Of a stretch of DNA of 64,000 bases, positions 9,391 to 36,228 are shown one piece after another (position 1 is the first letter of the stretch; each line of letters opens with the position of its first letter). Source of the stretch: Nitrospiraceae bacterium (lineage in GTDB: Bacteria; Nitrospirota; Nitrospiria; Nitrospirales; Nitrospiraceae). The stretch is taken from contig JBFWWG010000007.1 in the NCBI GenBank assembly GCA_050246315.1, forward strand, positions 96,001 through 160,000. Reading direction: 5' to 3'. The notes beneath the pieces were generated by a model. It made no database searches. It was not told the DNA's origin and saw nothing but the letters and a program-made list of their open reading frames with translations. Position numbers and translations under genes: made by a program.

Positions 9391-9399
9391 TTTCCTAAC

Positions 9400-10784: not shown

Positions 10785-10863
10785 CTACAGAAGTAGACTT
10801 ATGCCACGCTACGAGTCGTGTGTTTTATCATGATGGCGGTTTTGCGAATCGAGGGTACAGGCT

Positions 10864-16175: not shown

Positions 16176-16243
16176 CCGTCGGGAGACGAGGCGAGCTTCC
16201 TCGAACGGTCAACATTCGACACGAGGCCAGAGGTTTCAAACCC

Positions 16244-16282
16244 AGAGCCCACGATCGCGTGATGCGATCGTGGGCTTTTTTG
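16244..16282 (+). terminator. Intrinsic terminator in the leader of the HD-GYP gene
   Basis: Perfect 13-bp stem AGCCCACGATCGC/GCGATCGTGGGCT with a 5-nt loop and a T-run. Confidence 0.85.
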
Positions 16283-16306
16283 TCATGCGAGATCACGGAG
16301 AGGGAC

Positions 16307-19651: not shown

Positions 19652-19825
19652 CTATCGCCAGAAACGGGAGTTACACCTCATGCCCTCACGAGGTGAGGTA
19701 ATGCTCCCTCGTCCGGCGCCCGGTAGAGACATGAAGGACCCGGCCACTCATTGCGAGGCGGCGCCGGCTCCGTGTACGAACCGCTCGCCTGGCCAGTCGC
19801 CGGTTCTCATTCCGCTCTTCCTCGT

Positions 19826-20203
19826 ATGGCAGGTGATTGGCTGGTGATCGTTTTCTTACTCTTTGCACCCTGAATCAACCATGGGACAAGACGGTGCTCG
19901 CGATCAGGTCCCCAACCGCACTCCGCCCATGACTACGCGGTCACCCGGCGCCACGCATTCGTCGCTTCCACAGGAACCGGACGGCTCGGTCAATTGATAA
20001 TCCCGCCGGGGATCGGGGAAAAGAGGGCCGAGCCTTCCCGGTCCGCACCGACCGATGTGGATGCCTCGTTTCGCCAGGTACCAGACCGTCTGCGCATGGC
20101 CAAGGTCGCCCATGCGAACGACAGTGCCGAAACGGTTTCGGCGCAAGTCGAGATGACCACTATCTGCGCCCCGTTCGAAGGAACGGCACTCACGTTCGTG
20201 TAA
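19826..20203 (+). pseudogene. Degenerate copy of the HlyD/MacA-type adaptor gene
   Basis: HDYAVTRRHAFVASTGTGRL and ICAPFEGT align with SGYVVAQRQASVASKGTGRL and IRAPFDGT of 20826..22085; in-frame TGA at 19871; truncated. Confidence 0.7.
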
Positions 20204-20271
20204 ATGGGCGAGACTAGTCGGGCGGGGGAGATGCCTCCTCGTAGCGCAGTGAGGCGTACAGGAAGATCCCT

Positions 20272-20829
20272 ATGGCAAGAATGCCGCAACCAGAGATCGA
20301 CTCAGACCGCACCCTGTCTTCGACAACCGAATGGCGTCGCCAGGTTCCGCCATGGGCTGCCAAGCTTGCTCACGTCAGCTCGGAGAAGGAACTGCTGGAG
20401 GCCGTCGCAGACCTCTGCAACTTCCGCCATGACGTGCCGTTCTGGGATGACGACACGGATCCGGAAGCCTCTCTCGCGGCGCGCATGGCAGCCTTCATTC
20501 ACGAGAACCTCCATAAGGGCTTGACCCTGAAGGTCCTCGCTCAATTCCTTGGGTATTCGGAAAAATACTGTTCTGAGCTCTTTCGCGACATCATGGGTGA
20601 ATCCTTTTCCTCTCATGTGAAGCGGCAGCGGCTCATCCATGCGACACGACTACTCAGCTCGACCGACAAGGGAATGGCGGAGATTGCCCGTGCTATTGGA
20701 TTTAGCGACCAATTCGCCTTCAGTCATTTCTTCAAGCGGGCGACAGGACTCTCACCCATCCAAATACGGACCCATGACAACGCAGGTTCTCGACAACGAA
20801 TGAGGAATCGCCGAACGGTGACACCATGA
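20272..20829 (+). CDS. AraC-family regulator (paralog of 19052..19651)
   Basis: NLHKGLTLK.L..FLGYSEKYCSELF is shared with the upstream copy; IGFSDQFAFSHFFK. Confidence 0.85.
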   Translation: MARMPQPEIDSDRTLSSTTEWRRQVPPWAAKLAHVSSEKELLEAVADLCNFRHDVPFWDDDTDPEASLAARMAAFIHENLHKGLTLKVLAQFLGYSEKYCSELFRDIMGESFSSHVKRQRLIHATRLLSSTDKGMAEIARAIGFSDQFAFSHFFKRATGLSPIQIRTHDNAGSRQRMRNRRTVTP

Positions 20830-22085
20830 CGGGAACGCCGATCCGCGACGCCGATGTGTCGGTCTTGACGTTGCCCCGAGATGAACCTCCTCATGGCCAT
20901 CGCACCTGCCGGACGCGCCTCGTCTGGACCATTGGGGTGCTCGCTGTCTGTTTGTGCATGATACTCCTGTACTGGTATGCGCCCTTCTTGTCCGCACGGC
21001 CGGAAGTGAGCACGGCACCGGTTCGGACTGTTGGCGGACAGGCGTCAAGCGCCCCGTTGATTGCCAGCGGCTATGTGGTGGCACAACGACAAGCATCGGT
21101 GGCATCCAAGGGTACCGGCCGTTTGGAATACCTTGGTGTGACGATAGGCAGTCGAGTCAGAACCGGAGATGTGGTCGCACGAGTCCAGCAAGACGATATC
21201 CGAGCGCTTCATCAGCAGGCTCGCGCACGTCTCGACGTGGCCAAGGCGGCCCTGATCAACGCCCAAGCCGAACGGCGTGACGCCCGGCAAAACTTTGCCC
21301 GGGCCGAGGCTCTGCTTCCAAACCAATACATCTCCCAGGCCGAAGTCGATATGGCTCAAAATCGCCTGCACCGTGCGGAGGCAGCGGTTCGCTCGTCCGA
21401 GGCAGCCATCACGGCTGCGGAGGCCGACGTCCAGACCGCCGATGTCATGCTGGAGAACACCGTGATCCGGGCCCCCTTTGACGGGACGGTTCTGAAGAAG
21501 TTCGCCGAGATCGGCGAGGTGGTTGCCCCTATGGCCAGCTCGGCTGGTTCACGGGGGGCCGTCGTTCTCATCGCGGATACGGCCTCCCTGGCCGTGGAAA
21601 CAGAAATTTCTGAAGCCTTGATCGCTCAAATCTCACCGAACCAACAAGCCGACATCGTTCTGGACGCGTTTCCCAACATACATTATCCGGCCGTCGTTGA
21701 GCAGGTTGTGCCCACCGCCGACCGCTCCAAAGGGACGGTCCTGGCCAAAGTGCGATTCAACAAGCTCGACGATCGAGTGCTGCCCGAAATGAGCGCGAAG
21801 GTCTCGTTTTCTCCCGCAGGCTCATCAGCGGATCCCGAGCCGGTGCGGATGTTTGTCCCCTCATCCTCGCTCGTGAGGACGAACGGCCAAACAGTACTTT
21901 ACGTACTCGAGGACGAAACTGCTCGCGAGGTTCCGGTTGAGGTGGTGGCCGAACAGGGGAGCGACAGTGAGATTCGCGGCTCGCTCGCATCGCCCGCCAC
22001 CGTCATTCTTGCCCCGCCCCGGTCGCTCACATCCGGATCCCGCGTTCGTTTCCACCCCGGCCACCAGGAGATAGCCCCACGATGA
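20826..22085 (+). CDS. Efflux periplasmic adaptor (HlyD/MacA family)
   Basis: TM anchor, lipoyl halves, coiled coil, IRAPFDG and LPEMSAKV. Confidence 0.9.
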   Translation: MTGTPIRDADVSVLTLPRDEPPHGHRTCRTRLVWTIGVLAVCLCMILLYWYAPFLSARPEVSTAPVRTVGGQASSAPLIASGYVVAQRQASVASKGTGRLEYLGVTIGSRVRTGDVVARVQQDDIRALHQQARARLDVAKAALINAQAERRDARQNFARAEALLPNQYISQAEVDMAQNRLHRAEAAVRSSEAAITAAEADVQTADVMLENTVIRAPFDGTVLKKFAEIGEVVAPMASSAGSRGAVVLIADTASLAVETEISEALIAQISPNQQADIVLDAFPNIHYPAVVEQVVPTADRSKGTVLAKVRFNKLDDRVLPEMSAKVSFSPAGSSADPEPVRMFVPSSSLVRTNGQTVLYVLEDETAREVPVEVVAEQGSDSEIRGSLASPATVILAPPRSLTSGSRVRFHPGHQEIAPR

Positions 22086-22750
22086 GTCAATCCGTCATCG
22101 AGTTCCACCGCGTCAATAAGTCTTACCGTCGAGGAGAACAGGAAGTGCCGGTGTTGCGCGATTTCAACCTGTCGATCCCCCCCACACAGTTTCTCGCCAT
22201 TATGGGACCATCTGGCTCGGGAAAGACCACGATCTTGAATCTGATCGCCGGGTTGGACCGTCCAAGCCAGGGCGTCATCCACGCCGCCGGCCTTACGGTC
22301 TCCGAACAACGGGAAACAGAATTGGCTCGATGGCGAGCACGGCATATCGGGTTCGTCTTTCAATTCTACAATCTCATTCCGGTTCTCACCGCGGCGGAAA
22401 ACGTCGAACTGCCGCTCCTGCTCAGCACCCTGACCAAACGAGAGCGGGCCAAACATGTGCAGGCGGCGCTCGGGCTGGTTGGTCTGAGCGATCGCGCGCA
22501 CCACTATCCGCGCCAGTTGTCCGGCGGTCAGGAACAACGGGTCGGGATCGCGCGCGCCATTGTGAGCGATCCCACCATTCTGCTGGCCGATGAGCCGACC
22601 GGCAACCTCGATCGGGATGCGGCCGACGCCGTCATGGGTCTCCTGACCCGCCTGCATCGGGACCTCAAGAAAACGATCCTGATGGTGACTCATGATCCGC
22701 GCGCCGCCGAGCACGCGCACAGCATCCTCCAACTGGACAAAAGCAGGTGA
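22082..22750 (+). CDS. ABC transporter ATP-binding protein (LolD/MacB type)
   Basis: GPSGSGKT, LSGGQEQR and LADEPTGNLD. Confidence 0.93.
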   Translation: MSQSVIEFHRVNKSYRRGEQEVPVLRDFNLSIPPTQFLAIMGPSGSGKTTILNLIAGLDRPSQGVIHAAGLTVSEQRETELARWRARHIGFVFQFYNLIPVLTAAENVELPLLLSTLTKRERAKHVQAALGLVGLSDRAHHYPRQLSGGQEQRVGIARAIVSDPTILLADEPTGNLDRDAADAVMGLLTRLHRDLKKTILMVTHDPRAAEHAHSILQLDKSR

Positions 22751-22758
22751 ATTAACGA

Positions 22759-23928
22759 ATGACGCTGAGTACATTCATATTGCGCAATGCAAGACGGCAT
22801 CCCCTTCGAGTGGCGCTGACCGCCTTGGGGATCGCCACCGTTATTCTCGCGTTCAATCTCGTCGTCACCACGGTTCGCGCCTGGTACGCAGGCGTCGAGG
22901 CTTCCGTCCCGAACAGACTGATTACCCGCCACGCCGCGTCGCTCTCGATCCACCTGCCGCTGGCCTATCGGAATCGTATTGCTTCGCTCGACGGCGTGAC
23001 CGGCGTCACCTTCGCCAATTGGTTTGGAGGCGTCTATCGGGACGCCAAGGGCTTTTTCCCCCAATTCGCCGTCGACCCCGGTTCGTTTCTCGATCTCCAC
23101 GAAGAAGTGCGGATCACGACAGACGAGCGACAGGCGTTCCTCGCCGACCGCCGAGGCTGCTTGGTCGGTCGCCGGCTTGCTGCGCAATACGGGTGGAAGA
23201 CCGGCGATGTCATTACGCTCAAAGGTACGCTGTATCCGGGCGACTGGGATTTTGTCGTCCGAGGCATCTACCACGGGGCCGATTCCGGAGCCGATGAAAC
23301 CTGGATGTTGATCCGCTGGGACTATATGAATGAGCGACGACGACAAGTGGATCCCGACCGCTCCAACACGGTGGGCTGGTACATCATTCGCGTAGCCGAT
23401 CCGATTCAAGCCGGTAATATTTCGAGATCGGTGGATGCAGAGTTCGCCAACTCCATGGCGGAGACCAGGACGGAAACCGAACAGGCTTTCCAGATGGGCT
23501 TTGTCGCAATGTCGGGGGCTATCATCGGCGCCTTGAAAGTTCTCGCCATTGTCCTCAACGGCATCACTCTCCTCGTTTTGGCCAACACCCTCGTGATGGC
23601 AGTGCGCGAGCGGACGAAGGAACTCGCCGTGATGCGGACCTTGGGATTCCGCTCATCACACCTGATTGCGCTCGTCACGGGGGAAGCCCTGGTGATAGCC
23701 GGACTGGGAGCGGGGTTGGGGATCCTCCTCACGATCCCCGCGAATCATCTCTACGCGGTACTGGTCGAGTCCAAGCTCGGTAATTTCTTTCAACACATGT
23801 ACCTGTATCCCACCACTCTGTTGTTGAGCGCAGTGGTGACGTTCGGTATCGCCGTCGGCGCATCGGTCGTGCCCGTTGCCGTGGTGTTGCGCGCGAAGGT
23901 AGCGCAGGGCCTTCGTCATGTCGGGTAG
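22759..23928 (+). CDS. ABC transporter permease (MacB/FtsX family)
   Basis: RN..R...R..LT start, periplasmic domain and VRERTKELAVMRTLGF. Confidence 0.9.
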   Translation: MTLSTFILRNARRHPLRVALTALGIATVILAFNLVVTTVRAWYAGVEASVPNRLITRHAASLSIHLPLAYRNRIASLDGVTGVTFANWFGGVYRDAKGFFPQFAVDPGSFLDLHEEVRITTDERQAFLADRRGCLVGRRLAAQYGWKTGDVITLKGTLYPGDWDFVVRGIYHGADSGADETWMLIRWDYMNERRRQVDPDRSNTVGWYIIRVADPIQAGNISRSVDAEFANSMAETRTETEQAFQMGFVAMSGAIIGALKVLAIVLNGITLLVLANTLVMAVRERTKELAVMRTLGFRSSHLIALVTGEALVIAGLGAGLGILLTIPANHLYAVLVESKLGNFFQHMYLYPTTLLLSAVVTFGIAVGASVVPVAVVLRAKVAQGLRHVG

Positions 23929-24043
23929 TCGGTCCTGCCATGTTGGTTCCGTTTTCTTGTTCGGTCATGAACGCACATCGCTTCCCGCTCGAAGCACAAT
24001 GCAAGCGAGGGTTGTTCTAGAAGTCATTTCGAAACCCTATGAC

Positions 24044-24122
24044 CGTACCTCGACGAGCTCAGCACGAATGCAGGAATATCCTCTTTTCATGAACAGATCC
24101 GCTTGCCCTGAGCCGGTCGAAG
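24044..24122. repeat. REP-like inverted pair
   Basis: TCGACGAGCTCAG (24050-24062) and CTGAGCCGGTCGA (24108-24120), 11/13 complementary. Confidence 0.5.
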
Positions 24123-24191
24123 CCTGCGGGGAGTGCATCGAACCGAGTGAACGGAAGGTTTTGAAATGACTCCTAGTCCAAAAGTCCACCG

Positions 24192-25202
24192 ATGAGAACA
24201 TTGCTCCTGACAATTGTGATGCTCGTACTCAGGTGGAATCGCGCGGACGCCCGGTCGCCACAGGAAATCGCCGATAGGCAACCCGGCGGGATTGAACCCG
24301 ACGAGATCAAGCTCTTCGTCGAAATGCCGGCAAGTGCCCGTGTGGTGCTCGCCGGAACAGTCGCCTAGGTCCGTGAGTTATCGCGTCAGACCATGCTGTG
24401 CCGGGTCTCGCAAGGGTTCAGTAGGAGAATCGGTCTCATGTCCTTGGACGACATCGGACGGGTCTGCATCAGCGTTCGTCGGGAGTTCCGGTTGAGCGAT
24501 AGCCAAGTGCGCAAGATTCAGTCGCCCTTCGAGACCGCTCTGCGGAACCTGTTGCGGCTCGGGAAGGAAATCGATCTCGGTCGTGGGGAGGCCGACCGAC
24601 TGGTGATGCGACCGGATATGGACCCGCAGGTGATCCGCGCACAACGTCAGAAGACCGGCAAAAACCGAAGGACGATGGTTCAGCAGGCACCTCGATGTCT
24701 CCGAGAAGCTCGCCGATCAGGCGACGGAGGAGCAGCGCAGCAACCTCGTCGCTCTCGAGAAACAGGCTCCGCAGACCCCATGGACGAGAGGCAGGACAAG
24801 GCAGGCCGCCACTGGGATGGCCGGCGCCGGTCATGGCTATAATCCGAATCACCTCGGCTTCGAGTCTTTTCTCGCTCAGATCGGTCGACTCGGCCTCACG
24901 GCGGAACACATCGCGGCCCTGGTGCACGTCACAAACGAGACACGAAAATGGTCTTGATGAAACAGGCCATGCTCAAGGGCGCGGAATTAGCGCTCATGAA
25001 CCTGCTTCGGCCGCAGACGAACACGACGGTGCCGCAGGAAATGTTCGCCCCGGCCGCTCAAGAGGTCGAGCGGATTAGGAGTCGAATGACTTGCGCGAAC
25101 GTATTGGGTTATTTCAACGCGCGGCAGATTCCCACTCCGCCGGAGCAACAGCACGTGCATGCGACGGACACCCTGAAGAATAGCCGCCAGGGTGGCCTAT
25201 GA
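24192..25202 (+). pseudogene. Two-domain Spy/CpxP (LTXXQ)-like periplasmic protein, disrupted
   Basis: Signal-like start at 24192, in-frame TAG at 24366, +1 shift near 24690 and -1 shift near 24948. The rebuilt protein has LSDSQ, TEEQR, LGLTAEH and PTPPEQ. Its final TGA overlaps the next ATG. Confidence 0.6.
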
Positions 25203-26371
25203 GCCTCCTATGGACCTACAGTCTCCGCAACCTGTGGGTGCGCGGGAGTACGACCGCACTCACCGTCGCCGGATTGGCTCTGGTCAGCCTGGTGCTCCTG
25301 GCCGTACTCATGTTGGGCAACGGCCTCAACGCCGCGCTCATCGAGAGCGGCTCGCCCGACAATGTCCTGCTGTTGCGAAAGGGCGCGACGACCGAGATCG
25401 CGAGCGGCATCTATCGCGACCAGGTGCACATCATCCGTACGCTTCCAGGCATTGCCCAGACTGCGGAGGGAGGACCACTCGCCATTCCAGAATTGGTAGT
25501 TCTGATCAGTCTCGCCAAACAGGGGACCGCAACCCCGGCTAACGTCGTGGTTCGCGGAACGCAGCCGGAGGCGTTCACCCTACGCTCCCAGTCCCGCCTG
25601 ACTCAGGGACGCCAGTGGCGACCGGGCACCACGGAGCTCGTCATTGGAAATCAGATCGCACAACGCTTCCTGCCGAAGGGCATCGGTTCGTCTCTTCGGA
25701 TCGGAAAGCGAGAATGGCTCGTCGTCGGTATTCTGGACGCACAGGGAACGGCCTTCGACACCGAAATCTGGGGCGATGTCGATCAACTCATGGCAACCTA
25801 CGGGCGCGACTCCTACAGCTCGCTGACACTTCGTCTTTCCCGCCCGGACGCCTTCCAGCAGATTGGAGAGGCCATTGGGGCCGATCCCCGACTGATGCTT
25901 CAGGTGAAACGCGAACGCGAGTACTACCGAGAGAAATCCCTGACCATGGCCATGTTTATTCGCTTCCTCGGGCTGACGTTCACGTTCATCTTCGCCTTGG
26001 GGGCGATTCTCGGAGGGACGATGACGATGTATGGCTCCGTGGCCGCCAGAACTCGGGAAATCGGGATGCTCCGCGCGCTGGGCTTCAGCCGCTACAGAAT
26101 TCTCGCTACGTTCTTGTTCGAGTCTCTTTTGCTCGGTGGACTGGCCGGATCACTCGCCATCGCGGGAGGTTTGGGTTTACAGTTCGTCACGCTCTCGACC
26201 ATGAACTGGAGTACATTCTCAGAGCTGACATTTCGCCTGACGTTGACTCCAGCATCGATCGTCATCACCCTGTGTTTCGCGATCGCCATTGGCATGCTGG
26301 GAGGAATCCCGCCAGCCCTAAGAGCCGCCCGCGTCATGGTGACCGCCGCGCTGCACGCACCGGGCCGGTAA
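25199..26371 (+). CDS. ABC transporter permease (MacB/FtsX family), second subunit
   Basis: YSLRNL..R..T..LT and TMYGSVAARTREIGMLRALGF. Confidence 0.9.
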   Translation: MSLLWTYSLRNLWVRGSTTALTVAGLALVSLVLLAVLMLGNGLNAALIESGSPDNVLLLRKGATTEIASGIYRDQVHIIRTLPGIAQTAEGGPLAIPELVVLISLAKQGTATPANVVVRGTQPEAFTLRSQSRLTQGRQWRPGTTELVIGNQIAQRFLPKGIGSSLRIGKREWLVVGILDAQGTAFDTEIWGDVDQLMATYGRDSYSSLTLRLSRPDAFQQIGEAIGADPRLMLQVKREREYYREKSLTMAMFIRFLGLTFTFIFALGAILGGTMTMYGSVAARTREIGMLRALGFSRYRILATFLFESLLLGGLAGSLAIAGGLGLQFVTLSTMNWSTFSELTFRLTLTPASIVITLCFAIAIGMLGGIPPALRAARVMVTAALHAPGR

Positions 26372-26469: not shown

Positions 26470-26484
26470 TGACGATCGTTCTCA
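26470..26484. promoter_or_regulatory. Fur-box-like palindrome (weaker)
   Basis: TGACGAT-C-GTTCTCA in an AT-rich patch upstream of the chelatase-like gene. Confidence 0.45.
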
Positions 26485-26937: not shown

Positions 26938-27861
26938 ATGCGTGGCATTTGTGCCGCTCTCGTTCTTTCCCTTCTGGCAGTTCCATACGATAGCCCGGCG
27001 GCGGACAGTTCGGTGGGCACCACCAAAATCGGCGTGTTGCTGGTCAACCATGGCTCACGCTCGGAGACATGGCGGAACGGCCTCTTGCAGTTGGAAGCGA
27101 ACGTCGCCCCGACTATCCTGAAGCAGCCGCGGGTGAGTGGGGTCAAGACGGCGTTCATGGAGTATACGGAGCCGTCCATCGCGACCCGCCTCAAGGAATT
27201 CGACCGGGATCACTACACGGACATCATTCTGATTCCCGTATTCCTGACCGTCAGCCCCCATACGTTCGACGACATTCCGACCATTGTCGGATTGAAGGAG
27301 GACCCGCATTCCATGCAGCAACTCAAAATCGAGAACATCCAACGCTACACTCCCCGCGCAAAGGTCCACATCACGCCGCCCCTTGATTTTACCGACTTAC
27401 TGCAACACAACTTGCTCCGTCGCGTATCAGCGCTCTCGAAGAACCCGGCCCAGGAAGGGATCGTCCTCATCGGCTATGGCGACGAGACGTACGACAGGGA
27501 ATGGGTCGAGTTGTTCAACAAGACAGCGGATTTTATCCGACAGCGGACGGGAATTAGCGCTTATGCCTATGGCTGGTGCGGCCATATCGCGGACTATAAA
27601 CCCGAGGAAACGACCGTGGCCATCAATACCGTTCTCAAGTCGGCGCGGACAGCCTTGGTGATTCCCGTCCTTGTCGCACACGACGAGACGTTCCAGATCA
27701 AAATTATCGGCACCGGGATTGCCCGGGTACCCGACAACCGGGAGCGTGTGGTGTACAAGCCGGATTCCATTCTTCCAGACCCTCGCTTGGAGGAATGGGT
27801 GATCACCATCGCACAGCAGTACGCCCACAAGATTCAACCCCGGCTGTCGCGGGCACAGTAA
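26938..27861 (+). CDS. Exported CbiX/SirB-family chelatase-like protein
   Basis: Signal peptide; GVLLVNHGSR, AFMEYTEPSI and IPVFLTVSPH (both class II chelatase His positions present). Confidence 0.8.
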   Translation: MRGICAALVLSLLAVPYDSPAADSSVGTTKIGVLLVNHGSRSETWRNGLLQLEANVAPTILKQPRVSGVKTAFMEYTEPSIATRLKEFDRDHYTDIILIPVFLTVSPHTFDDIPTIVGLKEDPHSMQQLKIENIQRYTPRAKVHITPPLDFTDLLQHNLLRRVSALSKNPAQEGIVLIGYGDETYDREWVELFNKTADFIRQRTGISAYAYGWCGHIADYKPEETTVAINTVLKSARTALVIPVLVAHDETFQIKIIGTGIARVPDNRERVVYKPDSILPDPRLEEWVITIAQQYAHKIQPRLSRAQ

Positions 27862-28457
27862 TGATGACCTCGGCAAAACAACGCATCGCTTGGCCGGAAT
27901 CCGACAGGCTCACGCGATGGAATCTTGTGGCTCATCGCGACATCGGATATGCCTGTGCCTCGTTGATTCTTGCCTATTGCCTGTCCGGCATCGCGCTGAA
28001 CCATATCGGCGACTGGAATCCCGACTTCGTCATTTCCAAGCGCATGGTGTTGCTGCCACGTCCGTACACGAAGGAAGAGATCACGCGTGAACATCTGGCT
28101 GAATTCGGCCGGATGGTCGACGAGAACGACTACAAGGTGTACGACTTTCCAACCTCCGACCAGGTCAAGATCTATTATGACAATGCGTCACTCCATCTTC
28201 ACTTGGGCACAGGGCAAGGCACCTACGAGAAAGTCTCGCGAAGACCAGTCCTGTATGAGGCCAATGTCCTGCACCTCAATCGCCTCAAAGGCTGGAAGTG
28301 GGCGTCGGACGTGTTTGCGCTGATCCTCATCGTCTTGAGCGTGACCGGACTCTTTGTCCTGCGCGGGAAGTATGGGCTCGCCCGCCGGGGAAAATGGCTC
28401 GTGGCCGCCGGCATGCTGCCTCCCCTGCTGGCGCTCCTCCTTTTCGAGCTAAAATAA
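27861..28457 (+). CDS. PepSY-associated TM helix protein
   Basis: HRDIGY.....ILAYCLSGIALNH and LHLN...WKW.SDVFA..LI...TGL; TAATG coupling to the upstream gene. Confidence 0.8.
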   Translation: MMTSAKQRIAWPESDRLTRWNLVAHRDIGYACASLILAYCLSGIALNHIGDWNPDFVISKRMVLLPRPYTKEEITREHLAEFGRMVDENDYKVYDFPTSDQVKIYYDNASLHLHLGTGQGTYEKVSRRPVLYEANVLHLNRLKGWKWASDVFALILIVLSVTGLFVLRGKYGLARRGKWLVAAGMLPPLLALLLFELK

Positions 28458-29111
28458 TCGGTCAGGGAATGGCGGGTCGGCACACGCTGGCTTGCCAACT
28501 TCGTAGGCGCCGGTCGAGTACGATCACCACTCTCCTTGCAGACCACGCTTCGACAATGCGGCCTGTGTTTGTCCGGAGTTCTCGTGTCTGCAGGCAGCAA
28601 GCTGCCCAGACACAGAACCCCGTTATCGGTGAACCACACCATGATACCGACCTGCCGGCAACATGTAGGAGTATAGCCCAATGCTGGGCTTCATTGGGCC
28701 TCCGCCGCCGCATTCGATTACCTGGATGCGGAGGGGCACTTTGCTGCGACTTCGCATCCTGGCCAGAGACCCGTTGCAGGCTGAGAACAATGGATGCCCG
28801 GAGGCGGATCGGCGATTGCAGTAGAAGCGTTTAGGACTACTTCGGTTTAGAACCTGAGGATTGCCTTATGCCCGTCGTTCGCGGGAGAAGGGGAGAGCTT
28901 TCCGCGAGGACACGGGGTGATCGAAGAACACCTGAAGCGGGCCGCCCCACAGCATGGATCACAGCTCTTCCACGATTCTGAAACAGAGTATGACTGGGAC
29001 CGGATGGCGGTGCACCTCGCTGCAACGACGACCGTCGCCATCCAGTCCCCTCACTCGTACGTCTCCCCTGTCTGTGAGGCAACACCGGCACTTCCAGAAG
29101 GAGGTCTTCCC

Positions 29112-29420
29112 ATGCAAAGCACGGATACACGCGCGGCGGTGGCCGCCTTGCTGATGCTCACCCTGCTGATAAGCGGTTGCGTGGAGGGAAGCGGGACAGG
29201 AACCCGCATTAGCCAAGACGACGTCGGAAACGCATCCTCGCACCCCCAGCCGCCCTTCGCCGGCGAGGCCGAAGTGGTCACCGGCACGAGTACACCGCAC
29301 AAACAGAAGAATACGCCGATAGAGATCGAACGGATCAGCGACAAGCAACTGGAGCAGAGCGGCGCCATACATCTCGACCAGGTGCTCCAGGACGTGCCGG
29401 GCCTTCAGCAGCGACGGTAG
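29112..29420 (+). CDS. Small lipoprotein containing only a TonB box and the N-terminal part of a plug domain
   Basis: AAGGAGGT RBS and lipobox LISGC; EVVTGTSTPHKQKNTPIEIERI...LEQSGA..LDQVLQDVPG parallels the receptor at 33076. Confidence 0.7.
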   Translation: MQSTDTRAAVAALLMLTLLISGCVEGSGTGTRISQDDVGNASSHPQPPFAGEAEVVTGTSTPHKQKNTPIEIERISDKQLEQSGAIHLDQVLQDVPGLQQRR

Positions 29421-29762
29421 GGAACACCGGAAACTCCAACCGGCACAATCTGCGGCCGGTATCGAACTTCATCCTGGACCATCGAGTACGCCTAGGTGAC
29501 CGGCGTGGTCATCGATTTAGACGCCGTGGTATCGGATCGAGGGCGGACGTGCTCGCTCTTGGCAGTCCTTTTCCGTACGTGACCTCTTCGAGATTCCTCC
29601 CACCTTCCGTTCATACCTATCCCCCCCGGAACGTTCGAGCCCGCCCCTTGTGCGGTCGTCCTTCGCGCTTCCCCTCCTTCACAGCCCATTTCCGGCCAAT
29701 GAGCATGCGCAAACCGGAAATTGAACATTCTTTCTTCCTGCTCGATTCGATATAAGCGTGGA

Positions 29763-29777
29763 TGAGAATAGTTCTCA
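29763..29777. promoter_or_regulatory. Fur-box-like palindrome upstream of the second tonB
   Basis: TGAGAAT-A-GTTCTCA, just downstream of TATAAG (29751). Confidence 0.7.
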
Positions 29778-29807
29778 CTATCGATATAGACCCGTTCTGG
29801 ACCTGTC

Positions 29808-31067
29808 ATGCCGCACGTGCTTCGAATCACAACCGCGCGATCCGTTCAAGGCTGGACGCTCTCCCTACTCGCCCATGGACTCATCATCAGCACCGCGATA
29901 ACGCTGTTGCGCAACGCACCACAGCCGGTCCTACACGAACCCTTTACGTGGAACGTCAAGCTAGTCGGGCCACCGCCTGCACCGGCCTTTCCGGCGGCGA
30001 TTCCATCTCCTTCGCCTTCCCCACAGACAACGACGGCTCAACCGTCATCGACAACGGCACGGCCAACCGAAACAACGTCGGTCGTCCGCACCATCCAACA
30101 GACTCAACCAATTCATCAAGCGGTCAGGCAAACGTTGACTGTCCCGAAGCCGACGATGCAAGAGGTCGTGCCTGCCACACGGATGACGCCCCAGCGCATC
30201 ACCGAGACACAACCTGCACAGCCGATTCCCGAGCGGCTTCAACAAGAAGTCAGCGCAGCGAAACCTCTGGTTCAGGAGGCCGGTCCCATCCGTCAATCCT
30301 TCCAGCAGACCCAACAGACGGTCATTCAGACCTCGTCCTTCGATGGGACAAGCCGGCACGAGATCGCAGTTGAAGCACGATCGACTCCTGCTGCGACACC
30401 CGAATTCGAAGCGGCCGTCTCCAGCACCGCCGGCCTCGTCACCAGAACACCTGTCTCCACGGAAGGTCCCGAATCGACGATCCACCGAGAGCCGACCCAG
30501 TCACATTCGTCCATTGTGACACATGCATCACCCTCCGGTACTGCGGCAGTCGTCTCCCGTGAGCCAAGTCAATCAATCGCTCATCACCCTGTCGCCTCGC
30601 CATCGCCCCCTGTAAACGAGATCGCGCCACACGCCGTCGAGCTGCAGCGCGTGTCGCCATCTGCCAGAGAGACGGAGCCCAGTTCCGAGATCAACGAAGA
30701 GGACCGACTTCTCGCTGCTGCGTCCGTGCATGCACCGGCACTGGAGTTGCCGTTGCGAGGCACACCCGGGACTAAATCCAGTTACGGTTGGCTTGCGCAG
30801 GAATTGTGGGATCGTGTCGAGCGTCTCAAACGTTATCCGCGCCTGGCACGCTTGAATGGCTGGGAAGGAAAAGTCGTCATTCGAGCGGTCATCGACGAAC
30901 AGGGTCGACTGGTTCACCAAGCGATCGAAGAAAGTTCCGGGTATGAAGCGCTCGATGAACATGCATTGGAGTTGATGAAACAAGTCTGCCCCGTGGCGCT
31001 CCGGCATCCGCTGGGGCAGCCGCAGGTGGCCGTCCATGTGCCCATTCACTATCGGATCGAACAATGA
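29808..31067 (+). CDS. tonB: Energy transducer TonB, second copy
   Basis: GWTLSLLAH TM helix; C-terminal YPRLARLNGWEGKVVIRAVI...SSGYEALD. Confidence 0.9.
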   Translation: MPHVLRITTARSVQGWTLSLLAHGLIISTAITLLRNAPQPVLHEPFTWNVKLVGPPPAPAFPAAIPSPSPSPQTTTAQPSSTTARPTETTSVVRTIQQTQPIHQAVRQTLTVPKPTMQEVVPATRMTPQRITETQPAQPIPERLQQEVSAAKPLVQEAGPIRQSFQQTQQTVIQTSSFDGTSRHEIAVEARSTPAATPEFEAAVSSTAGLVTRTPVSTEGPESTIHREPTQSHSSIVTHASPSGTAAVVSREPSQSIAHHPVASPSPPVNEIAPHAVELQRVSPSARETEPSSEINEEDRLLAAASVHAPALELPLRGTPGTKSSYGWLAQELWDRVERLKRYPRLARLNGWEGKVVIRAVIDEQGRLVHQAIEESSGYEALDEHALELMKQVCPVALRHPLGQPQVAVHVPIHYRIEQ

Positions 31068-31155
31068 GGCAGACGGCTGAGGTTGAGGCCGAGGCCTACC
31101 GAGAGAGTGATCGGCCTGACCTTCAACCTGGCTTTCCTCACAAAGGAGATTTCAC

Positions 31156-32868
31156 ATGAAGACGTCTATCCGTGCATATCTACTGGCGTTCTTGGCCATG
31201 CTTGCCTGGTCTGCCCCCCTGTCGGCGACTGAATCCAAGACCGGATTCCTCGTGATCGCTCAGGACCGTGGCTTCGTCGGCAATCAGGAGTTGCTCGATC
31301 TCATACAGGAGTTCAAGAAGGACTATCCCGCCGCTCTGGCCTTGATCGGGCGCGACTACACCGGCATTGAAGGCGAGTATGCCGTCTACCTGACGCGGGC
31401 CGTGCAGGAACTGAAACAAACCGGCGTGACGGACATTGTCGCGATCCCTTTGTTTCTCTCCTCCGCAGATCCGGTTCTGAAACGGACCGTGCCGACAGTG
31501 CCGGCCTACACCGCCGGCCTCCCGGTGCGTTGGGCCCCCGCGATGGCCCAGAGCTACCTAACAGGCCAGGTGATCCTGGATCGGGTTGAGACGCTGAGCC
31601 AACAGGTCCGAGCCGCGGAATCAGGTGGCCACGGGCACTCCGAGCGCCTCATTCTTCTCGGCATCGGCGCCGTCGATGCCGCAAGCGAGAAAGCTTTAAA
31701 GGCGGACCTTGATCGCCTCCTCGCTTACGTCCAACGGTACAAAGGTTTCGAAAGCGCCGAGGCGGTCGTCTACTACGATCGCGAAGCCGATGGGGCGGAA
31801 CAAAGGAACCGCGAAATCAAGGCCCACGTCCTCTCGCGCGTGGCCAGACAAGGCCGCACCCTGATCGTGCCCGCCTTCATTGGCCCCAAATTCGACCAGT
31901 CGATGGCCATGACCGCATGGTTGGGCAAACAGTTCGCCGGCCTCAATGTCGCCTACCAACCTGCCGAGTTGATGCCGCATCCCAACGTCTCGCTCTGGCT
32001 CAAAAAGACCGCCAACCAGTTCGTGGCGGTCCGGCCGGATGAGATCGGCGTGGTGGTTATGCCGCACGGCTCTATGCAGCCCTGGAACGACGCTGTCGAG
32101 CGGATCATCGAGCCGCTGAAAGTCAGGTACCGGATTGAGATGGCCTACGGCATGGGCGATCCGGACATCATCCAAACGGCGGTGACGAAACTGGAACGTC
32201 AAGGCATCAAGCGGATCGTGTTCGTCCGCATGTATGAGTTGGTTCACCACATGAAACCCCTCACCGATTACATCCTCGGCCTGGCGGACGCTCCCGGCTT
32301 CTCCGGCCATGGCGAGGGACACGGACACGACGTTCCGGCGCAGGTTCGCAGTGCGGCGCTTTTCTCCGCGTTCGGCGGCTATACGGAAAATTTTCCTCCT
32401 ATCGCGCAGGTGCTATGCGACCGCATCACAGAGATCAGTAAAGATCCGGCCAAGGAGACGGTGGTGTTTCTGGCCCATGGTTCGAATACGGACGAGGACA
32501 ATGACCACTGGCTCTCGGTGATTCGAACCAATATCGACTGGGTCAAGAAGGACTCTCGCTGCGCGTCCTTCAAGGCCATAAAGCCGGCGACGGTGCGAGA
32601 AGATTGGCCGGAAAAGCGCGAGAAGGCGGTTGCCGATGTCAGAAAGATGATCGAGGAGGACGCCAAGACCGGGCGCGTGCTGGTGATCGCGAACCGCATG
32701 TACGGGTCCGGTCCCTACAAGAAGATGCTCAATGGGCTGGAGTACGTATTGAACGAAAAAGGCTTCGCCAGCTCGGCCCTCACCAAGTGGCTTGAGGAAG
32801 GCATCGAGCGAACCGTCACGGCTTTGACGACCCCGACAACCAATACTGACCGCCTCGCCCAGCGGTAG
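31156..32868 (+). CDS. Exported tandem CbiX-like chelatase-domain protein
   Basis: Signal peptide; repeated chelatase-like subdomains (GFLVIAQD/VAIPLFLS, LILLGIG, VVVMPHGS, VFLAHGS) and His-rich linkers. Confidence 0.7.
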   Translation: MKTSIRAYLLAFLAMLAWSAPLSATESKTGFLVIAQDRGFVGNQELLDLIQEFKKDYPAALALIGRDYTGIEGEYAVYLTRAVQELKQTGVTDIVAIPLFLSSADPVLKRTVPTVPAYTAGLPVRWAPAMAQSYLTGQVILDRVETLSQQVRAAESGGHGHSERLILLGIGAVDAASEKALKADLDRLLAYVQRYKGFESAEAVVYYDREADGAEQRNREIKAHVLSRVARQGRTLIVPAFIGPKFDQSMAMTAWLGKQFAGLNVAYQPAELMPHPNVSLWLKKTANQFVAVRPDEIGVVVMPHGSMQPWNDAVERIIEPLKVRYRIEMAYGMGDPDIIQTAVTKLERQGIKRIVFVRMYELVHHMKPLTDYILGLADAPGFSGHGEGHGHDVPAQVRSAALFSAFGGYTENFPPIAQVLCDRITEISKDPAKETVVFLAHGSNTDEDNDHWLSVIRTNIDWVKKDSRCASFKAIKPATVREDWPEKREKAVADVRKMIEEDAKTGRVLVIANRMYGSGPYKKMLNGLEYVLNEKGFASSALTKWLEEGIERTVTALTTPTTNTDRLAQR

Positions 32869-33075
32869 ATAGCTTCGCACCTGCCCGCGGCGCCTCGCAG
32901 GGACAGATATCTCCACATGTCCCGCCCTGGCTTCTGGCTCCCCTCGCCCTCCGGGGAGCCAGAAGATAGGGGCGCCGCCTCCCTCCACAACTTCTTGGTT
33001 GAGACCTGTTCATTCCTTCCGTCACGCCAAGGACCGAACCCAACGGCCCGCACTACATCGAATGAAAGGATCGCG

Positions 33076-35133
33076 ATGCTCACGAAATCGAATGGCATTC
33101 CGTCATACGCCGTGGTAGTCGTCGCCTTGTTGCTGGCTGAGTGCTGGCAGGGAGGCTTCTTCCCCGCGAGAGCCGCTGAAGACGCCACTGTCCAAGAGGA
33201 GCGAGCGGAGACAAAAGCGGAGAAACCGCGCAGCGAACCGCCTCCGTCGGGCAAGGACGTTCACGTGGCGGATGTCGTTATCACCGGCACATGGACGCCC
33301 CACGCCCAGAAGGATTCTCCGGTCGAGACTGAGCGCATTACCGGCGCGATGCTTGAGCAGGCGGGTGCTACGAACGTGCGGCAGGTGCTCCAGGATGTCC
33401 CGGCCATCGACGCGCAACGCGCGCCTAACGGGTTCCAGACCTTCCAGATCCAGGGTCTCTCCAGCATCCACACGCTATTTCTCGTGAACAGCCAGGAGCT
33501 GATCGGGACGATCGAGGGCGCCACCTTTACGAGAGACCTGCTGGCCTCCCCGGAAATCGAGGCCATGGAAATCGTCAAGGGCGCCGCCGCGGTCCAATAC
33601 GGAAGCGATGCGATCGGCGGAGTCATCAACATCCGAACCAGGAGAGGCACGAAGCCGGCCGGCGGGCTGGTCTTTGGTCAATACGGACGATTCAATACCG
33701 TGACGACCTTCGGCGCCCCGGAGTTCCGCACCGCCGACGGGAAGTTCGGCGGCTACGTCTCAGCCGGATACAGCGGTTCCGACGGCTTCGACTTGAACCA
33801 AGCCACCGCCCAGACCGACGGCGAACCTCAGTTTGCCACCAAGACGGCGAGCGGCAATTTCGATTATCGGCTCTCGAACAGGGTCACGCTGTCCTTTTAC
33901 ACCCGCTATTCGGCTGACGACCGGAAGTCCAAGCAGAACGCCCTTCCACCCTCCATCCCCAGCATCCGGCAGGTCCAAGGCAACAACGACCGGTCCCAAA
34001 ATATTTTGCGCTTGGATTGGAATCCCGACGCCGTTTCGACCTTCACGCTGTGGGGGCACTACCAAAACTTTCTAAATGAATCGAGTACGTTCCGATTGGA
34101 CAATAACCAGTTGCTGCGGAGGTCGAGCTTCACGCAGGAGCTCTGGGAGCCGCAATTCCAATACAGCAGACAGATCGGCGGGCGTCACTTGCTTACGCTC
34201 GGCGGAGAAGACGACATTCGCAAACAGCGCGGTCAATCCCTTCGCGGCGGCAAGACCGAGTTAAACGAAGCGGCCGGATGGGGGCAAGATGAAATCGAAG
34301 TGCTGCCTTGGATGGATATCCTCTTGGGCGGCCGCTATACGTCCAACAGCGAGTACGGCGGGTTTTTCTCGCCCCAGACCACGTTGCTCCTCAAGCCCGG
34401 GAACTTCCGCGGCCGCTTCACCTACACCCGCGGGTTCCGCAGTCCCACGTTGACCGATATCTCGGCCTTTTTCGTCGAGGGCGGCGGAGTCGGCGTCGTC
34501 GGCAACCCGAACCTGGAACCTGAGAAATCGACGAGCTATACCACAAACATCGAGTATTACTTCGAGCGAGCCAAGATTGGCGCCAGCGCCTTCCGTCACG
34601 AGGTCAGCAATCTCATCCAATACGTTCCGGGAACCTGCACGGCCGCCGATGCGGCCGCCCTAGGCGTGCCGTCGACCTTCTGCTTCTCGCCCAGCAACGT
34701 CTCCAGCACCAGAAGCCAAGGGTTCGAACTTGAGGCGGGCGTCAGACCGTGGAACTGGCTCTACATCGAAACCGGGTACATGTACCTCGACTCGCGAAAC
34801 CTGGACAACGGCTCGTTTCTCTTCCAACGCTCGCCGAATACGTGGAAAACGCGCATGCGGATCGAGCGGGAACGGTGGAACTTCACAGGCCGGCTCCGCT
34901 ACAACTCCTCGTTCGGATTCTCCGACCTGAATCGAAACAACGTGGTGGACCCCAACGAAAAGGCTCCGTCCAACATCCAGCTCGATCTTCGGTTAGCCAT
35001 CCAGATTAGGAAGGATGTGGAGCTGTACGGGGGCGTGGACAATGTGACCCAATCCCGGATGAACGTCAGTGCCGGCCAGGTCCCGCTTCCGGGAGTAGCT
35101 CTCTACTACGTCGGCATGCGGATGACGCTATAA
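33076..35133 (+). CDS. TonB-dependent receptor (BtuB/CirA-like)
   Basis: DVVITGT TonB box, EIVKGAAAVQYGSDAIGGVINI and GNPNLEPEKS; RBS before the ATG at 33076. Confidence 0.92.
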   Translation: MLTKSNGIPSYAVVVVALLLAECWQGGFFPARAAEDATVQEERAETKAEKPRSEPPPSGKDVHVADVVITGTWTPHAQKDSPVETERITGAMLEQAGATNVRQVLQDVPAIDAQRAPNGFQTFQIQGLSSIHTLFLVNSQELIGTIEGATFTRDLLASPEIEAMEIVKGAAAVQYGSDAIGGVINIRTRRGTKPAGGLVFGQYGRFNTVTTFGAPEFRTADGKFGGYVSAGYSGSDGFDLNQATAQTDGEPQFATKTASGNFDYRLSNRVTLSFYTRYSADDRKSKQNALPPSIPSIRQVQGNNDRSQNILRLDWNPDAVSTFTLWGHYQNFLNESSTFRLDNNQLLRRSSFTQELWEPQFQYSRQIGGRHLLTLGGEDDIRKQRGQSLRGGKTELNEAAGWGQDEIEVLPWMDILLGGRYTSNSEYGGFFSPQTTLLLKPGNFRGRFTYTRGFRSPTLTDISAFFVEGGGVGVVGNPNLEPEKSTSYTTNIEYYFERAKIGASAFRHEVSNLIQYVPGTCTAADAAALGVPSTFCFSPSNVSSTRSQGFELEAGVRPWNWLYIETGYMYLDSRNLDNGSFLFQRSPNTWKTRMRIERERWNFTGRLRYNSSFGFSDLNRNNVVDPNEKAPSNIQLDLRLAIQIRKDVELYGGVDNVTQSRMNVSAGQVPLPGVALYYVGMRMTL

Positions 35134-35243: not shown

Positions 35244-35723
35244 TCATGAGCCCTCTTTATGGAGTTGTTCAGCCAAGTAACGCTCAAGTCCGATCTGCTT
35301 GACCGTCTCGAGTTGTGTTTCGAACCAATCGACATGCTCCTCGGAATCAATCACCATATGTTCGAGTAGGTGCCGGGTCGTGAAATCTCCGACCTTGGCA
35401 CAATGGGCAATCGCCTCCCGCAGGAGTTGAACATCGTCCTGCTCGAATTTGAGATCGGCTTTGAACAGGTCCGCGACGGTCGCCCCGGATGTGACATGCT
35501 CCATTCGTTCGACGTTCGGCGTTCCATCAAGATAGATAATGTGATCGATCAAGCCCGAGGCATGACCGACCTCTTCCGTGGCCGTTTCTTTCAAATGGTG
35601 TTCCAACCGCTCGTACCCCCAGTTACCGCACAAGGCCGCATGCAGTAGGTATTGATGAACGGCCGTCAGCTCCGCCGTGAGAATGGTGTTCAGTCGATCA
35701 ATGACGCCTTCTTTCGCTTTCAT
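35244..35723 (-). CDS. bfr: Bacterioferritin subunit lacking the heme-ligand Met
   Basis: ELTAVHQY and EEVGHA (Val at the Met52 position); GGAGG-like RBS before MKAKEG. Confidence 0.9.
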   Translation of the reverse strand: MKAKEGVIDRLNTILTAELTAVHQYLLHAALCGNWGYERLEHHLKETATEEVGHASGLIDHIIYLDGTPNVERMEHVTSGATVADLFKADLKFEQDDVQLLREAIAHCAKVGDFTTRHLLEHMVIDSEEHVDWFETQLETVKQIGLERYLAEQLHKEGS

Positions 35724-35751
35724 TTCCGGTCCTCCGATCGTGCGGGGTTCG

Positions 35752-36228
35752 TTACCCATCCTTCTTGATTTGTTCGGCCAAATAATTCTCCAGGCCGATC
35801 TGCTTGATGGTCTCCATCTGCGTCTCGATCCAGTCGATGTGGGCATCCACATCTTTGGCCATGTCTTCGAGCATGTGCCTGGTCGTAAAATCGCCGACTT
35901 TGGCGCAATGCACCACGCCGTCGCTCAGTAACTTGAGCATGTCCTGTTCGGCCTTCAAGTCCAGCTTGAACTGCTCGGGGACCCCCTCTCCGACATTGAC
36001 CGTATTCAGACGCTGGACGTTCGGCACCCCTTCTAAATAGAGGATGTGCTCGATCAACTCTTCGGCGTCCTTCATCTCGTCGATGCTCCGCTCGCGCACT
36101 TTATGATGGAGCCGTTCGTATCCCCAGTTCTCACACATCTTGGCATGCACAAAATATTGGTTGATCGCGGTGAGATCCGCCGTCAATACTTTGTTAAGAA
36201 TATCGATCACCCCTTCTTTCGCTTTCAT
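35752..36228 (-). CDS. bfr: Bacterioferritin subunit with heme Met but degenerate ferroxidase centre
   Basis: DLTAINQYFVH, IDEMKDA and DVDAHIDW. Confidence 0.92.
   Translation of the reverse strand: MKAKEGVIDILNKVLTADLTAINQYFVHAKMCENWGYERLHHKVRERSIDEMKDAEELIEHILYLEGVPNVQRLNTVNVGEGVPEQFKLDLKAEQDMLKLLSDGVVHCAKVGDFTTRHMLEDMAKDVDAHIDWIETQMETIKQIGLENYLAEQIKKDG

Follow-up and report, generated by a model that had tools for sequence, protein, structure and literature searches.

A SirB-type chelatase-fold protein, predicted to be exported, and its half-size PepSY-TM partner in a putative iron-chelate uptake cluster of Nitrospiraceae

The cluster and its proteins

The window analysed here is a stretch of 64,000 nucleotides (nt) of a Nitrospiraceae bacterium (contig JBFWWG010000007.1, here C7, positions 96001-160000), which belongs to a genome of 4.39 Mb that is 100% complete; homologues of the window proteins carry Nitrospira names in public sources. 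It encodes a protein of 307 amino acids (aa) with a SirB/CbiX-type class II chelatase fold (CbiX307), predicted to be exported, together with a half-size PepSY-TM membrane protein (TM, transmembrane), and further downstream a TonB-family protein, a second chelatase-fold protein of 570 aa (CbiX570) and a TonB-dependent receptor. The features of this cluster are as follows:

26470..26484: weak Fur-like box TGACGATCGTTCTCA, about 450 nt 5' of the 307-aa gene; 3 mismatches to TGAGAATNATTCTCA, possibly a chance match
26938..27861, + strand: CbiX307, predicted exported SirB/CbiX-type class II chelatase-fold protein, 307 aa; PF01903 54.5 bits (gathering cut-off 22); signal-like N-terminus MRGICAALVLSLLAVPYDSPAA
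27861..28457, + strand: PepSY_TM_like_2 membrane protein, half-size, 198 aa; PF16357 54.2 bits
29112..29420, + strand: apparent N-terminal remnant of a TonB-dependent receptor; LLISGC (lipobox-like), EVVTGT (TonB-box-like) and the first third of Plug, then TAG
29763..29777: Fur-like 7-1-7 palindrome TGAGAATAGTTCTCA, 31 nt 5' of the TonB start
29808..31067, + strand: TonB-family protein, 419 aa; PF03544 (TonB_C) 52.9 bits, TIGR01352 61 bits
31156..32868, + strand: CbiX570, predicted exported tandem class II chelatase-fold protein, 570 aa; signal-like MKTSIRAYLLAFLAMLAWSAPLSA; PF01903 22.7 bits
33076..35133, + strand: TonB-dependent receptor, 685 aa from M54 of the open reading frame (ORF) 32917-35133; Plug 64.2 bits, barrel 137.1 bits; likely start at 33076, preceded by AAAGGA
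35244..35723, - strand: bacterioferritin 1; TIGR00754 150.9 bits; likely start M44 of ORF 35244-35852
35752..36228, - strand: bacterioferritin/ferritin-like protein 2; PF00210 118.8 bits
36342..36356: Fur-like box TGAAAATTGTTCTCA, upstream of the bacterioferritin (bfr) pair

The AlphaFold2 model of CbiX307 (mean predicted local distance difference test, pLDDT, 85.3) is a class II chelatase fold with two Rossmann-like alpha/beta domains and a cleft. Its closest solved fold is SirB 5zt8 (VIA Z 17.4, root-mean-square deviation 3.6 Å, 242 residues aligned), followed by ferrochelatases (Z approximately 15-16), Desulfovibrio CbiK-P 2xvz (14.9), Porphyromonas FetB/IhtB 9b86 (14.7) and Paracoccus CbiX (14.2), and Foldseek likewise matched the model to class II chelatases (SirB, HemH, CbiK and DR2241) with a probability of 1.0. 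The window protein matches PF01903 only and gave no match to PF06180 (CbiK), while a precomputed PF06180 match stands besides in 4 of 120 listed homologues. Its best NCBIfam matches are to sirohydrochlorin nickelochelatase models (NF002090, 73.4 bits; NF033198, 66.5 bits), both under the cut-off of 120. Seven residues are invariant in the family, namely H38 and H108 (in 37 sequences), C214, H216, H248, D249 and E250, the last five of which lie in the second domain; in a profile alignment of the family H38 and H108 fall on the histidines of the HGS and GIH motifs of CfbA 6m25, which we take to be the catalytic, metal-binding pair that follows strands 1 and 3 of one domain. A modelled complex of mature CbiX307 and the PepSY protein scored 0.01, which gives no verdict for or against binding.

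The sequence-only reading of the window had described two CbiX/SirB-like proteins with signal peptides, and both the ORFs and the signal-like N-termini were recovered here. Using a heuristic other than SignalP (a hydrophobic 10-mer with a Kyte-Doolittle mean of at least 2.0 before the first strand), a signal-like segment was found in 114 of 116 members of the 307-aa family and in 109 of 113 members of the 570-aa family, the maximum in nine cytoplasmic control proteins from the window being 1.51. Bacteroidota homologues of CbiX307 have in addition a lipoprotein-type cysteine after the hydrophobic stretch. Both CbiX-like proteins are thus predicted, by their signal-like N-termini, to be exported. 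By its signal-like N-terminus, its neighbours and its equivalog scores, CbiX307 does not fit a cytoplasmic class II chelatase of a biosynthetic pathway, and the public labels 'sirohydrochlorin chelatase' and 'cobalamin biosynthesis protein CbiX' are for these proteins probably wrong as to pathway and compartment. In line with that earlier reading, no cobalamin or sirohaem synthesis genes were present among the scanned window ORFs, and no cobalamin riboswitch was detected in the window, nor in the homologous loci L037, L041 and L060. The Runella defluvii locus L049 does carry one (19925-20128, 111 bits), 9 kb downstream of the pair, where it heads a separate operon past a second receptor and a full-size PepSY_TM gene.

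The class II chelatase fold, for which structure prediction had been proposed as a check, was also returned for CbiX570. Its PF01903 match is borderline against the cut-off of 22, no single stretch passing, and its AlphaFold2 model (mean pLDDT 83.6) consists of four alpha/beta domains that form two tandem chelatase modules, each half of which matches SirB, DR2241, HemH and CbiK-P with a Foldseek probability of 1.0. Phosphofructokinase rows heading the Foldseek list were disregarded because their TM-scores lie below 0.2. The 307-aa and 570-aa families are distant relatives (hhalign 97.8%). H275, H304 and H441 are invariant in the 570-aa family, the first module of which lacks both of the histidine positions (D37/R38 and S102/D105) while the second keeps only H304 and H441, and a histidine-rich loop at 383-391 is partly conserved. 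At E <= 0.001 the family comprises 766 representative clusters, the most distant full-length members sharing about 27% identity. Homologues occur in 10 of 41 sampled genomes (E <= 0.001), just five of them full length, a tally that includes a partial match at a contig end in the unpublished genome G009. Compared with the 98%-identical sister (genome G002, locus L018), the gene differs at 10, 1 and 26 sites over the three codon positions.

The gene of the PepSY partner is translationally coupled to the 307-aa gene, as had been read from the sequence, its ATG at 27861 overlapping the TAA stop by 1 nt (TAATG). Besides PF16357, the partner reaches just 19.9 bits with PF03929 (cut-off 28.8). It has three TM segments predicted from sequence, with a single loop of approximately 100 aa between TM1 and TM2, and H25, H48 and H138, at both ends of TM1 and before TM2, are invariant (73 and 31 sequences). 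Differences from the sister gene are 0, 1 and 5 over codon positions. FoxB is described as having four TM helices, two PepSY domains and two b-haems held by conserved histidines at both membrane faces, and as reducing ferric siderophores (bioRxiv 10.1101/2021.01.28.428567); PF16357 and PF03929 are grouped elsewhere as three-helix 'PepSY-like' proteins tied to the reduction of iron outside the cytosol (bioRxiv 10.1101/2021.01.07.425746). The partner being half-size, two chains would be required here to build a four-helix haem bundle like that of FoxB, and a homodimer would, by analogy, reproduce the FoxB layout.

The second TonB of the window, noted in the sequence-only reading, is confirmed at 29808-31067 and has an N-terminal anchor, a long Pro/Thr/Gln-rich spacer and TonB_C. 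That reading had also called the receptor BtuB/CirA-like. It is a TonB-dependent receptor whose nearest solved chains are CirA, BtuB and PhuR, albeit with sub-threshold and mixed family matches: all NCBIfam matches fall below cut-off, with TonB-hemin TIGR01785 at 124 against 317 bits, haemoglobin/transferrin at 112 and B12 at 94 bits. No substrate was assigned from the NCBIfam and PDB sequence searches, given these sub-threshold matches to haem, B12 and CirA types. FRAP/NPNL-like motifs are present in the receptor but are non-specific. A perfect inverted repeat of 13 bp (CTTCTGGCTCCCC ... GGGGAGCCAGAAG, 32931-32968), with no T-run after it, is located after the 570-aa stop codon and ahead of the start of the receptor gene and may be an RNA stability or attenuation element.

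Fur-like boxes had been claimed before the units of the cluster; a palindrome does stand 31 nt before the TonB gene, whereas only the weak box with its three mismatches precedes the 307-aa gene. The palindrome at 29763-29777 has one mismatch to the local consensus and three to the E. coli-type Fur consensus as we take it to be. With up to 2 mismatches allowed, the 17 Nitrospira-type loci described below (275,837 nt) contain its motif 16 times, whereas 20 shuffles gave 0.35 occurrences on average and 2 at most; 14 of the 16 matches, in 13 of the 17 loci, lie between the FtsX and TonB genes. A similar box stands between bfr and topA in L035. The TonB module is therefore predicted to be under a Fur-type iron operator, the likeness resting on the presumed consensus.

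Distribution and arrangement of the pair

When 185,579 species were scanned, each represented by one genome, at least 204 stretches were returned that encode relatives of CbiX307, a family of 1,460 protein clusters, and the best 80 of these stretches were kept with their flanks. In 79 of these 80 loci a PepSY_TM_like_2 gene lies directly downstream of the 307-aa homologue, and in the lone exception (L074) the contig ends 147 nt past the gene. By record titles the 80 loci belong to Nitrospira/Nitrospiraceae, Bacteroidota (the majority), Chlorobiota, Verrucomicrobiota and Hydrogenedentota, and among cultured bacteria the pair is carried by Runella defluvii, Runella limosa and Nemorincola caseinilytica. 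Going by the names in public sources, Nitrospira lenta and Nitrospira sp. KM1 possess both CbiX-like genes. Homologues outside Nitrospira stay 58-69% identical to the window protein (alignment A2). Seventeen of the loci were assigned by synteny as Nitrospira-type, leaving 63 others. Since the pair is patchy in Nitrospira yet shared by several phyla, its spread by horizontal transfer is suggested. Some odd locus labels (Bifidobacteriaceae, Akkermansia and Spirochaetia) look doubtful and may be explained by binning errors. The 9-kb contig of L022, titled Bacteroidota bacterium, has Nitrospira-type synteny (TonB, 570-aa gene, receptor, pair and bfr) at 73-83% identity and probably represents such an error.

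A TonB-dependent receptor lies within 5 kb of the pair in 60 of the 80 loci, and genes of the HmuY family (haemophore-type) were found within 6 kb in 40 of them by a neighbour-cluster profile. A shorter HmuY type in three further loci brings the total to 43 of 80, and every one of these belongs to the 63 loci outside the Nitrospira type. When checked against Pfam, five of seven representatives of the long HmuY cluster reach the cut-off, one scores 24.8 against 27 and one matches by its type IX secretion system (T9SS) tail only, while all three of the short type pass. The usual order in Bacteroidota is an HmuY-like gene with a T9SS tail, the chelatase-fold gene, the PepSY gene, the receptor and an HmuY-like lipoprotein gene. 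Three loci have FeoB within 2.5 kb and five have a Fur gene within 6 kb, at a distance of 39 nt in both Runella records. If the pair itself, the receptor and HmuY are set aside, each neighbour family is confined to at most 9 of the 76 loci used for clustering, so that no inner-membrane haem transporter is conserved with the pair. Small inserts sometimes stand between the PepSY gene and the receptor, as in L037 (11638-12123, a 161-aa CopD/DUF4149-like membrane protein) and L040 (11450-11779), and they include a DUF6686 protein found in seven loci.

In the 17 Nitrospira-type loci the usual order is MauG-like, AraC, AraC, HlyD, ATP-binding cassette (ABC) protein, FtsX, FtsX, TonB, (570-aa), receptor, 307-aa, PepSY, bfr, bfr and topA. 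The cluster had been read as one joint system, which does not hold: it consists of two separable modules, the first being TonB, the 570-aa protein and the outer-membrane receptor behind the Fur-like operator, and the second the 307-aa/PepSY pair. The 570-aa gene is present in 12 of the 17 loci; the pair stands without it, with full flanks, in L032, L035 and L068, and the reverse is seen in genomes G001, G016 and G040. In G001 the 570-aa gene lies behind a set of extracytoplasmic function sigma-like, anti-sigma-like and receptor genes (judged from ORF positions only), in G016 the order is TonB, FecA-like receptor, AraC, 570-aa gene, bfr and topA, and in G040 the gene is near a receptor. A decayed copy at a conserved position, fragmented and with internal stops, was observed between bfr and an AraC gene in G018 (L019, G018:C20, approximately 9680-11370). 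In the Nitrospira-type variants L025-L027, L029, L033 and L034, the stretch from the 570-aa gene to the pair encodes another receptor type of about 760-815 aa, 25-32% identical to that of the window, as well as a 247-aa protein that matches no Pfam family and a 392-aa protein with a Trans_reg_C DNA-binding domain (238-314).

The ORF at 29112-29420 had been interpreted as a plug-only lipoprotein, an interpretation we abandon. It covers positions 2-36 of the 107 of the Plug profile (18.8 bits; cut-off 23.9), a 48-aa stretch of it shares 56% identity with the N-terminal end of the receptor homologue in this same cluster, and its 10 differences from G002 fall 2, 4 and 4 over codon positions, as compared to 4, 3 and 19 for the receptor gene. 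Owing to this partial Plug, the likeness to receptor N-termini and the missing third-position bias, the fragment looks like a receptor remnant left over from rearrangement, with no sign of purifying selection. A functional role as a TonB-box decoy lipoprotein was rejected, there being no sign of selection and the fragment being seen besides the window only in the near-identical L018 and L020. The arrangement in L028 is similar to that of the window, the pair lying upstream of TonB, and a fragment of the 570-aa gene (11875-12135, 58% identity) between the PepSY gene and the TonB module represents a second case of rearrangement debris at the junction at which the plug fragment lies.

The genes upstream of the cluster look like the rest of an iron island, with an FbpABC-like ABC transporter at 6703-10605, about 17 kb upstream of the cluster, and beyond the bfr pair lie topA, dprA, rng, rodA, pbp2, mreC and mreB. 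The further features are:

11653-12813: first TonB of the window
13537-15939: FecA-like receptor
16042-16752: 236-aa ORF beside the FecA-like receptor and the MauG-like gene
17148-18908, + strand: 586-aa protein with a MauG/MbnH-like di-haem peroxidase region at its C-terminal end; TIGR04039 54 bits, below cut-off
19052-26371, + strand: two short AraC-type regulators and an HlyD-ABC-FtsX-FtsX (MacB-type) pump
63262-63664, - strand: RNase P RNA class A, bacterial; 286 bits

Several Nitrospira-type loci (L020, L032, L035 and L068) retain the MauG-like gene ahead of the AraC and MacB genes. Contigs from RNA libraries of four studies cover parts of every cluster gene, which indicates presence only and not transcription, strand or operon structure; two runs (X4 and X7) have zero depth over 28322-29332, which includes the plug fragment, and this proves nothing.

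Readings of the cluster

We favour, tentatively and with somewhat less than even confidence, a pathway that begins with TonB-dependent uptake of chelated iron, most likely as haem, and leads through reduction by the PepSY protein to the removal or capture of the iron by the exported chelatase-fold proteins. The receptor would import the chelate, most likely haem or another iron tetrapyrrole. The PepSY-TM protein, probably a haem-b-binding dimer like FoxB, would carry electrons across the inner membrane and reduce Fe(III) to Fe(II). CbiX307, in which the histidine pair of CfbA/SirB is kept, would bind the tetrapyrrole and either extract its iron as a reverse chelatase or capture the released Fe(II), and CbiX570 may have a periplasmic binding or shuttle role. 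Iron would then enter by a separate inner-membrane transporter, for which the FbpABC-like system is the candidate because the genome is without FeoB and FbpABC lies in the same island, and would be stored in the adjacent bacterioferritins. FeoB itself was rejected as the Fe(II) importer, as the matches in the genome were confined to GTPase domains and did not exceed 47 bits, and a search with a true FeoB as query turned up nothing of FeoB length; nor was a match to canonical haem oxygenase (PF01126) found in the genome. Import of an iron tetrapyrrole with periplasmic removal of its iron is favoured owing to the chelatase fold and histidine pair, the conservation across phyla, the operons with HmuY and receptor, the FeoB and Fur neighbours, the Fur-like operator and the bacterioferritins. 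The sequence-only reading had likewise proposed import of a metallo-tetrapyrrole or metal chelate with periplasmic de-metallation that feeds FbpABC; the HmuY-plus-receptor operons and the FeoB and Fur neighbours speak for a metallo-tetrapyrrole and for its de-metallation in the periplasm, although de-metallation and the hand-over to FbpABC stay conjectural.

Several observations weigh against this reading. The 307-aa protein was found in just 2 of the 41 sampled relatives, and in the window and the near-identical L018 and L020 the pair is relocated upstream of TonB, away from its receptor. The family matches of that receptor are far sub-threshold and split between haem, B12 and catecholate types, and the whole 100%-complete genome has no match to HmuY (PF14064) and yielded no component specific to haem. 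Upstream of the Nitrospira cluster stand two AraC regulators and a pump of the MacB type, which are typical of siderophore systems and would also suit a pathway of the pyoverdine kind. Finally, the 307-aa gene differs from its counterpart in the sister genome at 15 sites that fall 5, 4 and 6 over codon positions, without the third-position bias of its neighbours; this could reflect relaxed constraint here, although the sites are too few to interpret.

An alternative is a siderophore-type pathway, which we consider unlikely, albeit a serious contender, and in which the receptor would import a ferric (xeno)siderophore, the PepSY protein would reduce it as FpvG and FoxB do, the chelatase folds would serve only as periplasmic Fe(II) acceptors like FpvC, by way of their histidine sites, and the MacB-type pump would recycle the chelator. 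For the PepSY protein, the chelatase folds and the pump the analogy is presumably with FpvG, FpvC and PvdRT of the pyoverdine system. The two AraC genes and HlyD-ABC-FtsX-FtsX are kept directly upstream in Nitrospira-type loci, the histidine-rich loops of CbiX570 would suit metal binding, the genome is without an HmuY match, and PepSY-TM proteins are documented in siderophore iron release (10.1101/2021.01.28.428567; 10.1101/2021.01.07.425746). Yet HmuY-family genes accompany the pair in 43 of the 63 loci outside Nitrospira, the best sub-threshold matches of the receptors are tetrapyrrole receptors, and identities of 58-69% across phyla with an invariant CfbA-type histidine pair would be easier to reconcile with a fixed substrate such as haem than with siderophores, which vary. 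The pump at 19052-26371 could export an emptied chelator or porphyrin, and we take PvdRT and MacAB to be its analogues. The HmuY context is also compatible with the binding and shuttling of haem or another tetrapyrrole without de-metallation, the chelatase folds passing haem on intact while the PepSY protein keeps its iron reduced, as is the resemblance of the fold to CbiK-P 2xvz (Z 14.9) and FetB 9b86 (Z 14.7); IhtB is described as a haem-binding lipoprotein (PMC12094164). This we regard as improbable, as no conserved inner-membrane haem transporter is present among the neighbour families, the FeoB and Fur neighbours point to iron and not haem crossing the inner membrane, and a catalytic-type histidine pair is retained.

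The uptake or handling of another metal or of a corrinoid (Co, Ni, Cu or B12-like) could be argued from the sub-cut-off sirohydrochlorin nickelochelatase models that are the best NCBIfam matches, from the BtuB-like sub-threshold matches of the receptor, from the histidine-rich loop of CbiX570 and from PepSY_TM proteins tied to copper (PMC13038864; PMC12914433). It is rendered highly improbable by the conserved Fur-like operator, by the bacterioferritin, FeoB, Fur and HmuY neighbours, and by the finding that neither the window nor the regions ahead of the operons in L037, L041 and L060 contain a cobalamin riboswitch. Ordinary cytoplasmic sirohaem or B12 chelatases whose N-termini were misread as signal peptides, as the public names 'sirohydrochlorin chelatase' and 'ferrochelatase' on family members might imply, seem scarcely credible, given the hydrophobic N-terminal extension in nearly all members with a lipoprotein-type cysteine in Bacteroidota, the absence of pathway context in the window and the missed NCBIfam equivalog cut-offs. 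The genome has, moreover, a separate small CbiX, a 170-aa protein on contig C1 without an N-terminal hydrophobic extension, which is its sole other PF01903 match above cut-off.

Within the favoured import of an iron tetrapyrrole, a more specific proposal, possible but doubtful, is that the pair acts as a self-contained periplasmic 'reverse ferrochelatase' in which the PepSY protein supplies electrons and the SirB-type protein pulls Fe(II) from haem, leaving protoporphyrin. Such a unit would represent the class II equivalent of HmuS, spread horizontally among aerobic environmental bacteria (Bacteroidota, Nitrospira, Chlorobiota and Verrucomicrobiota), and if true would explain how iron is obtained from haem in bacteria that have operons with HmuY and a receptor but are without HmuS or haem oxygenase. 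In Nitrospira, with its iron-hungry nitrite oxidoreductase and cytochromes, the cluster points to the piracy of haem or chelates in activated sludge.

Comparison with known systems

CbiK-P and IhtB/FetB are known examples of exported proteins that have a class II chelatase fold and occur in an iron or haem setting, and PepSY-TM reductases are known as well. Three things appear to be undescribed, namely an exported lineage of the SirB type, the obligate link of this lineage to a PepSY-TM protein of half size, and the tandem form of 570 aa. No description of an exported CbiX paired with a PepSY-TM protein was found in the literature searched, a search that extended neither to subscription-only papers nor to the original IhtB and CbiK-P papers; a cbiX gene adjoining hmuY in Rhodothermus marinus is mentioned in passing in one paper (PMC6987092). 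CbiX307 shares with the cytoplasmic SirB, CbiX-L and CfbA, which act in sirohaem, B12 and F430 synthesis, the fold, the PF01903 match and an N-terminal-domain histidine pair that aligns with CfbA. It is unlike them in its predicted export, in having no biosynthetic neighbours, in missing the equivalog cut-off (73 against 120 bits), in the extra invariant C214/H216/H248/D249/E250 of its family and in the PepSY-TM gene with which it is always paired. CbiK-P (2xvz) and IhtB/FetB (9b86) likewise combine export, which is predicted for CbiX307, with a class II chelatase fold and a setting of iron or haem transport; however, CbiX307 belongs to Pfam CbiX and not CbiK, is nearer to SirB and has a PepSY-TM partner, not an ABC transporter. 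Its conserved histidine pair sits in the N-terminal domain, and CbiK types carry theirs in the C-terminal domain. IhtB is described as a CbiK-like putative reverse ferrochelatase beside a TonB receptor (PMC12094164).

With FoxB, FpvG and VciB the PepSY partner shares a predicted location in the inner membrane, a gene beside that of a TonB receptor in an apparently iron-regulated cluster and histidines at both membrane faces, but as compared to the four TM helices and two PepSY domains of each FoxB chain it has 198 aa, three predicted TM segments and one periplasmic domain. An aerobic haem uptake operon of Bacteroidota is Hfp of Flavobacterium psychrophilum, which comprises the HfpR receptor and the HmuY-like HfpY, is induced by iron scarcity and is without HmuS; unlike the loci of the pair, it has no chelatase-fold or PepSY gene reported in the accessible part of that source, and the terms are absent from one supplementary file (PMC9331221).

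The removal of iron from haem without oxygen-dependent cleavage of the ring has been settled only recently, in gut Bacteroidota, for HmuS, which is a proven NADH-dependent haem de-chelatase (PMC12583661; PMC10100974). In common with the class I, CobN-like HmuS as described there, the pair is proposed to remove Fe(II) from haem in a reductant-dependent manner, on the periplasmic side and downstream of HmuY and a TonB receptor (PMC12583661; PMC10100974). Whereas HmuS is large, membrane-anchored and of proven activity, CbiX307 has a small, soluble class II fold and its activity is a proposal. Many aerobic Bacteroidota, and this nitrite oxidiser, are without HmuS, and the exported chelatase-fold protein with its membrane redox partner represents a candidate for that step.

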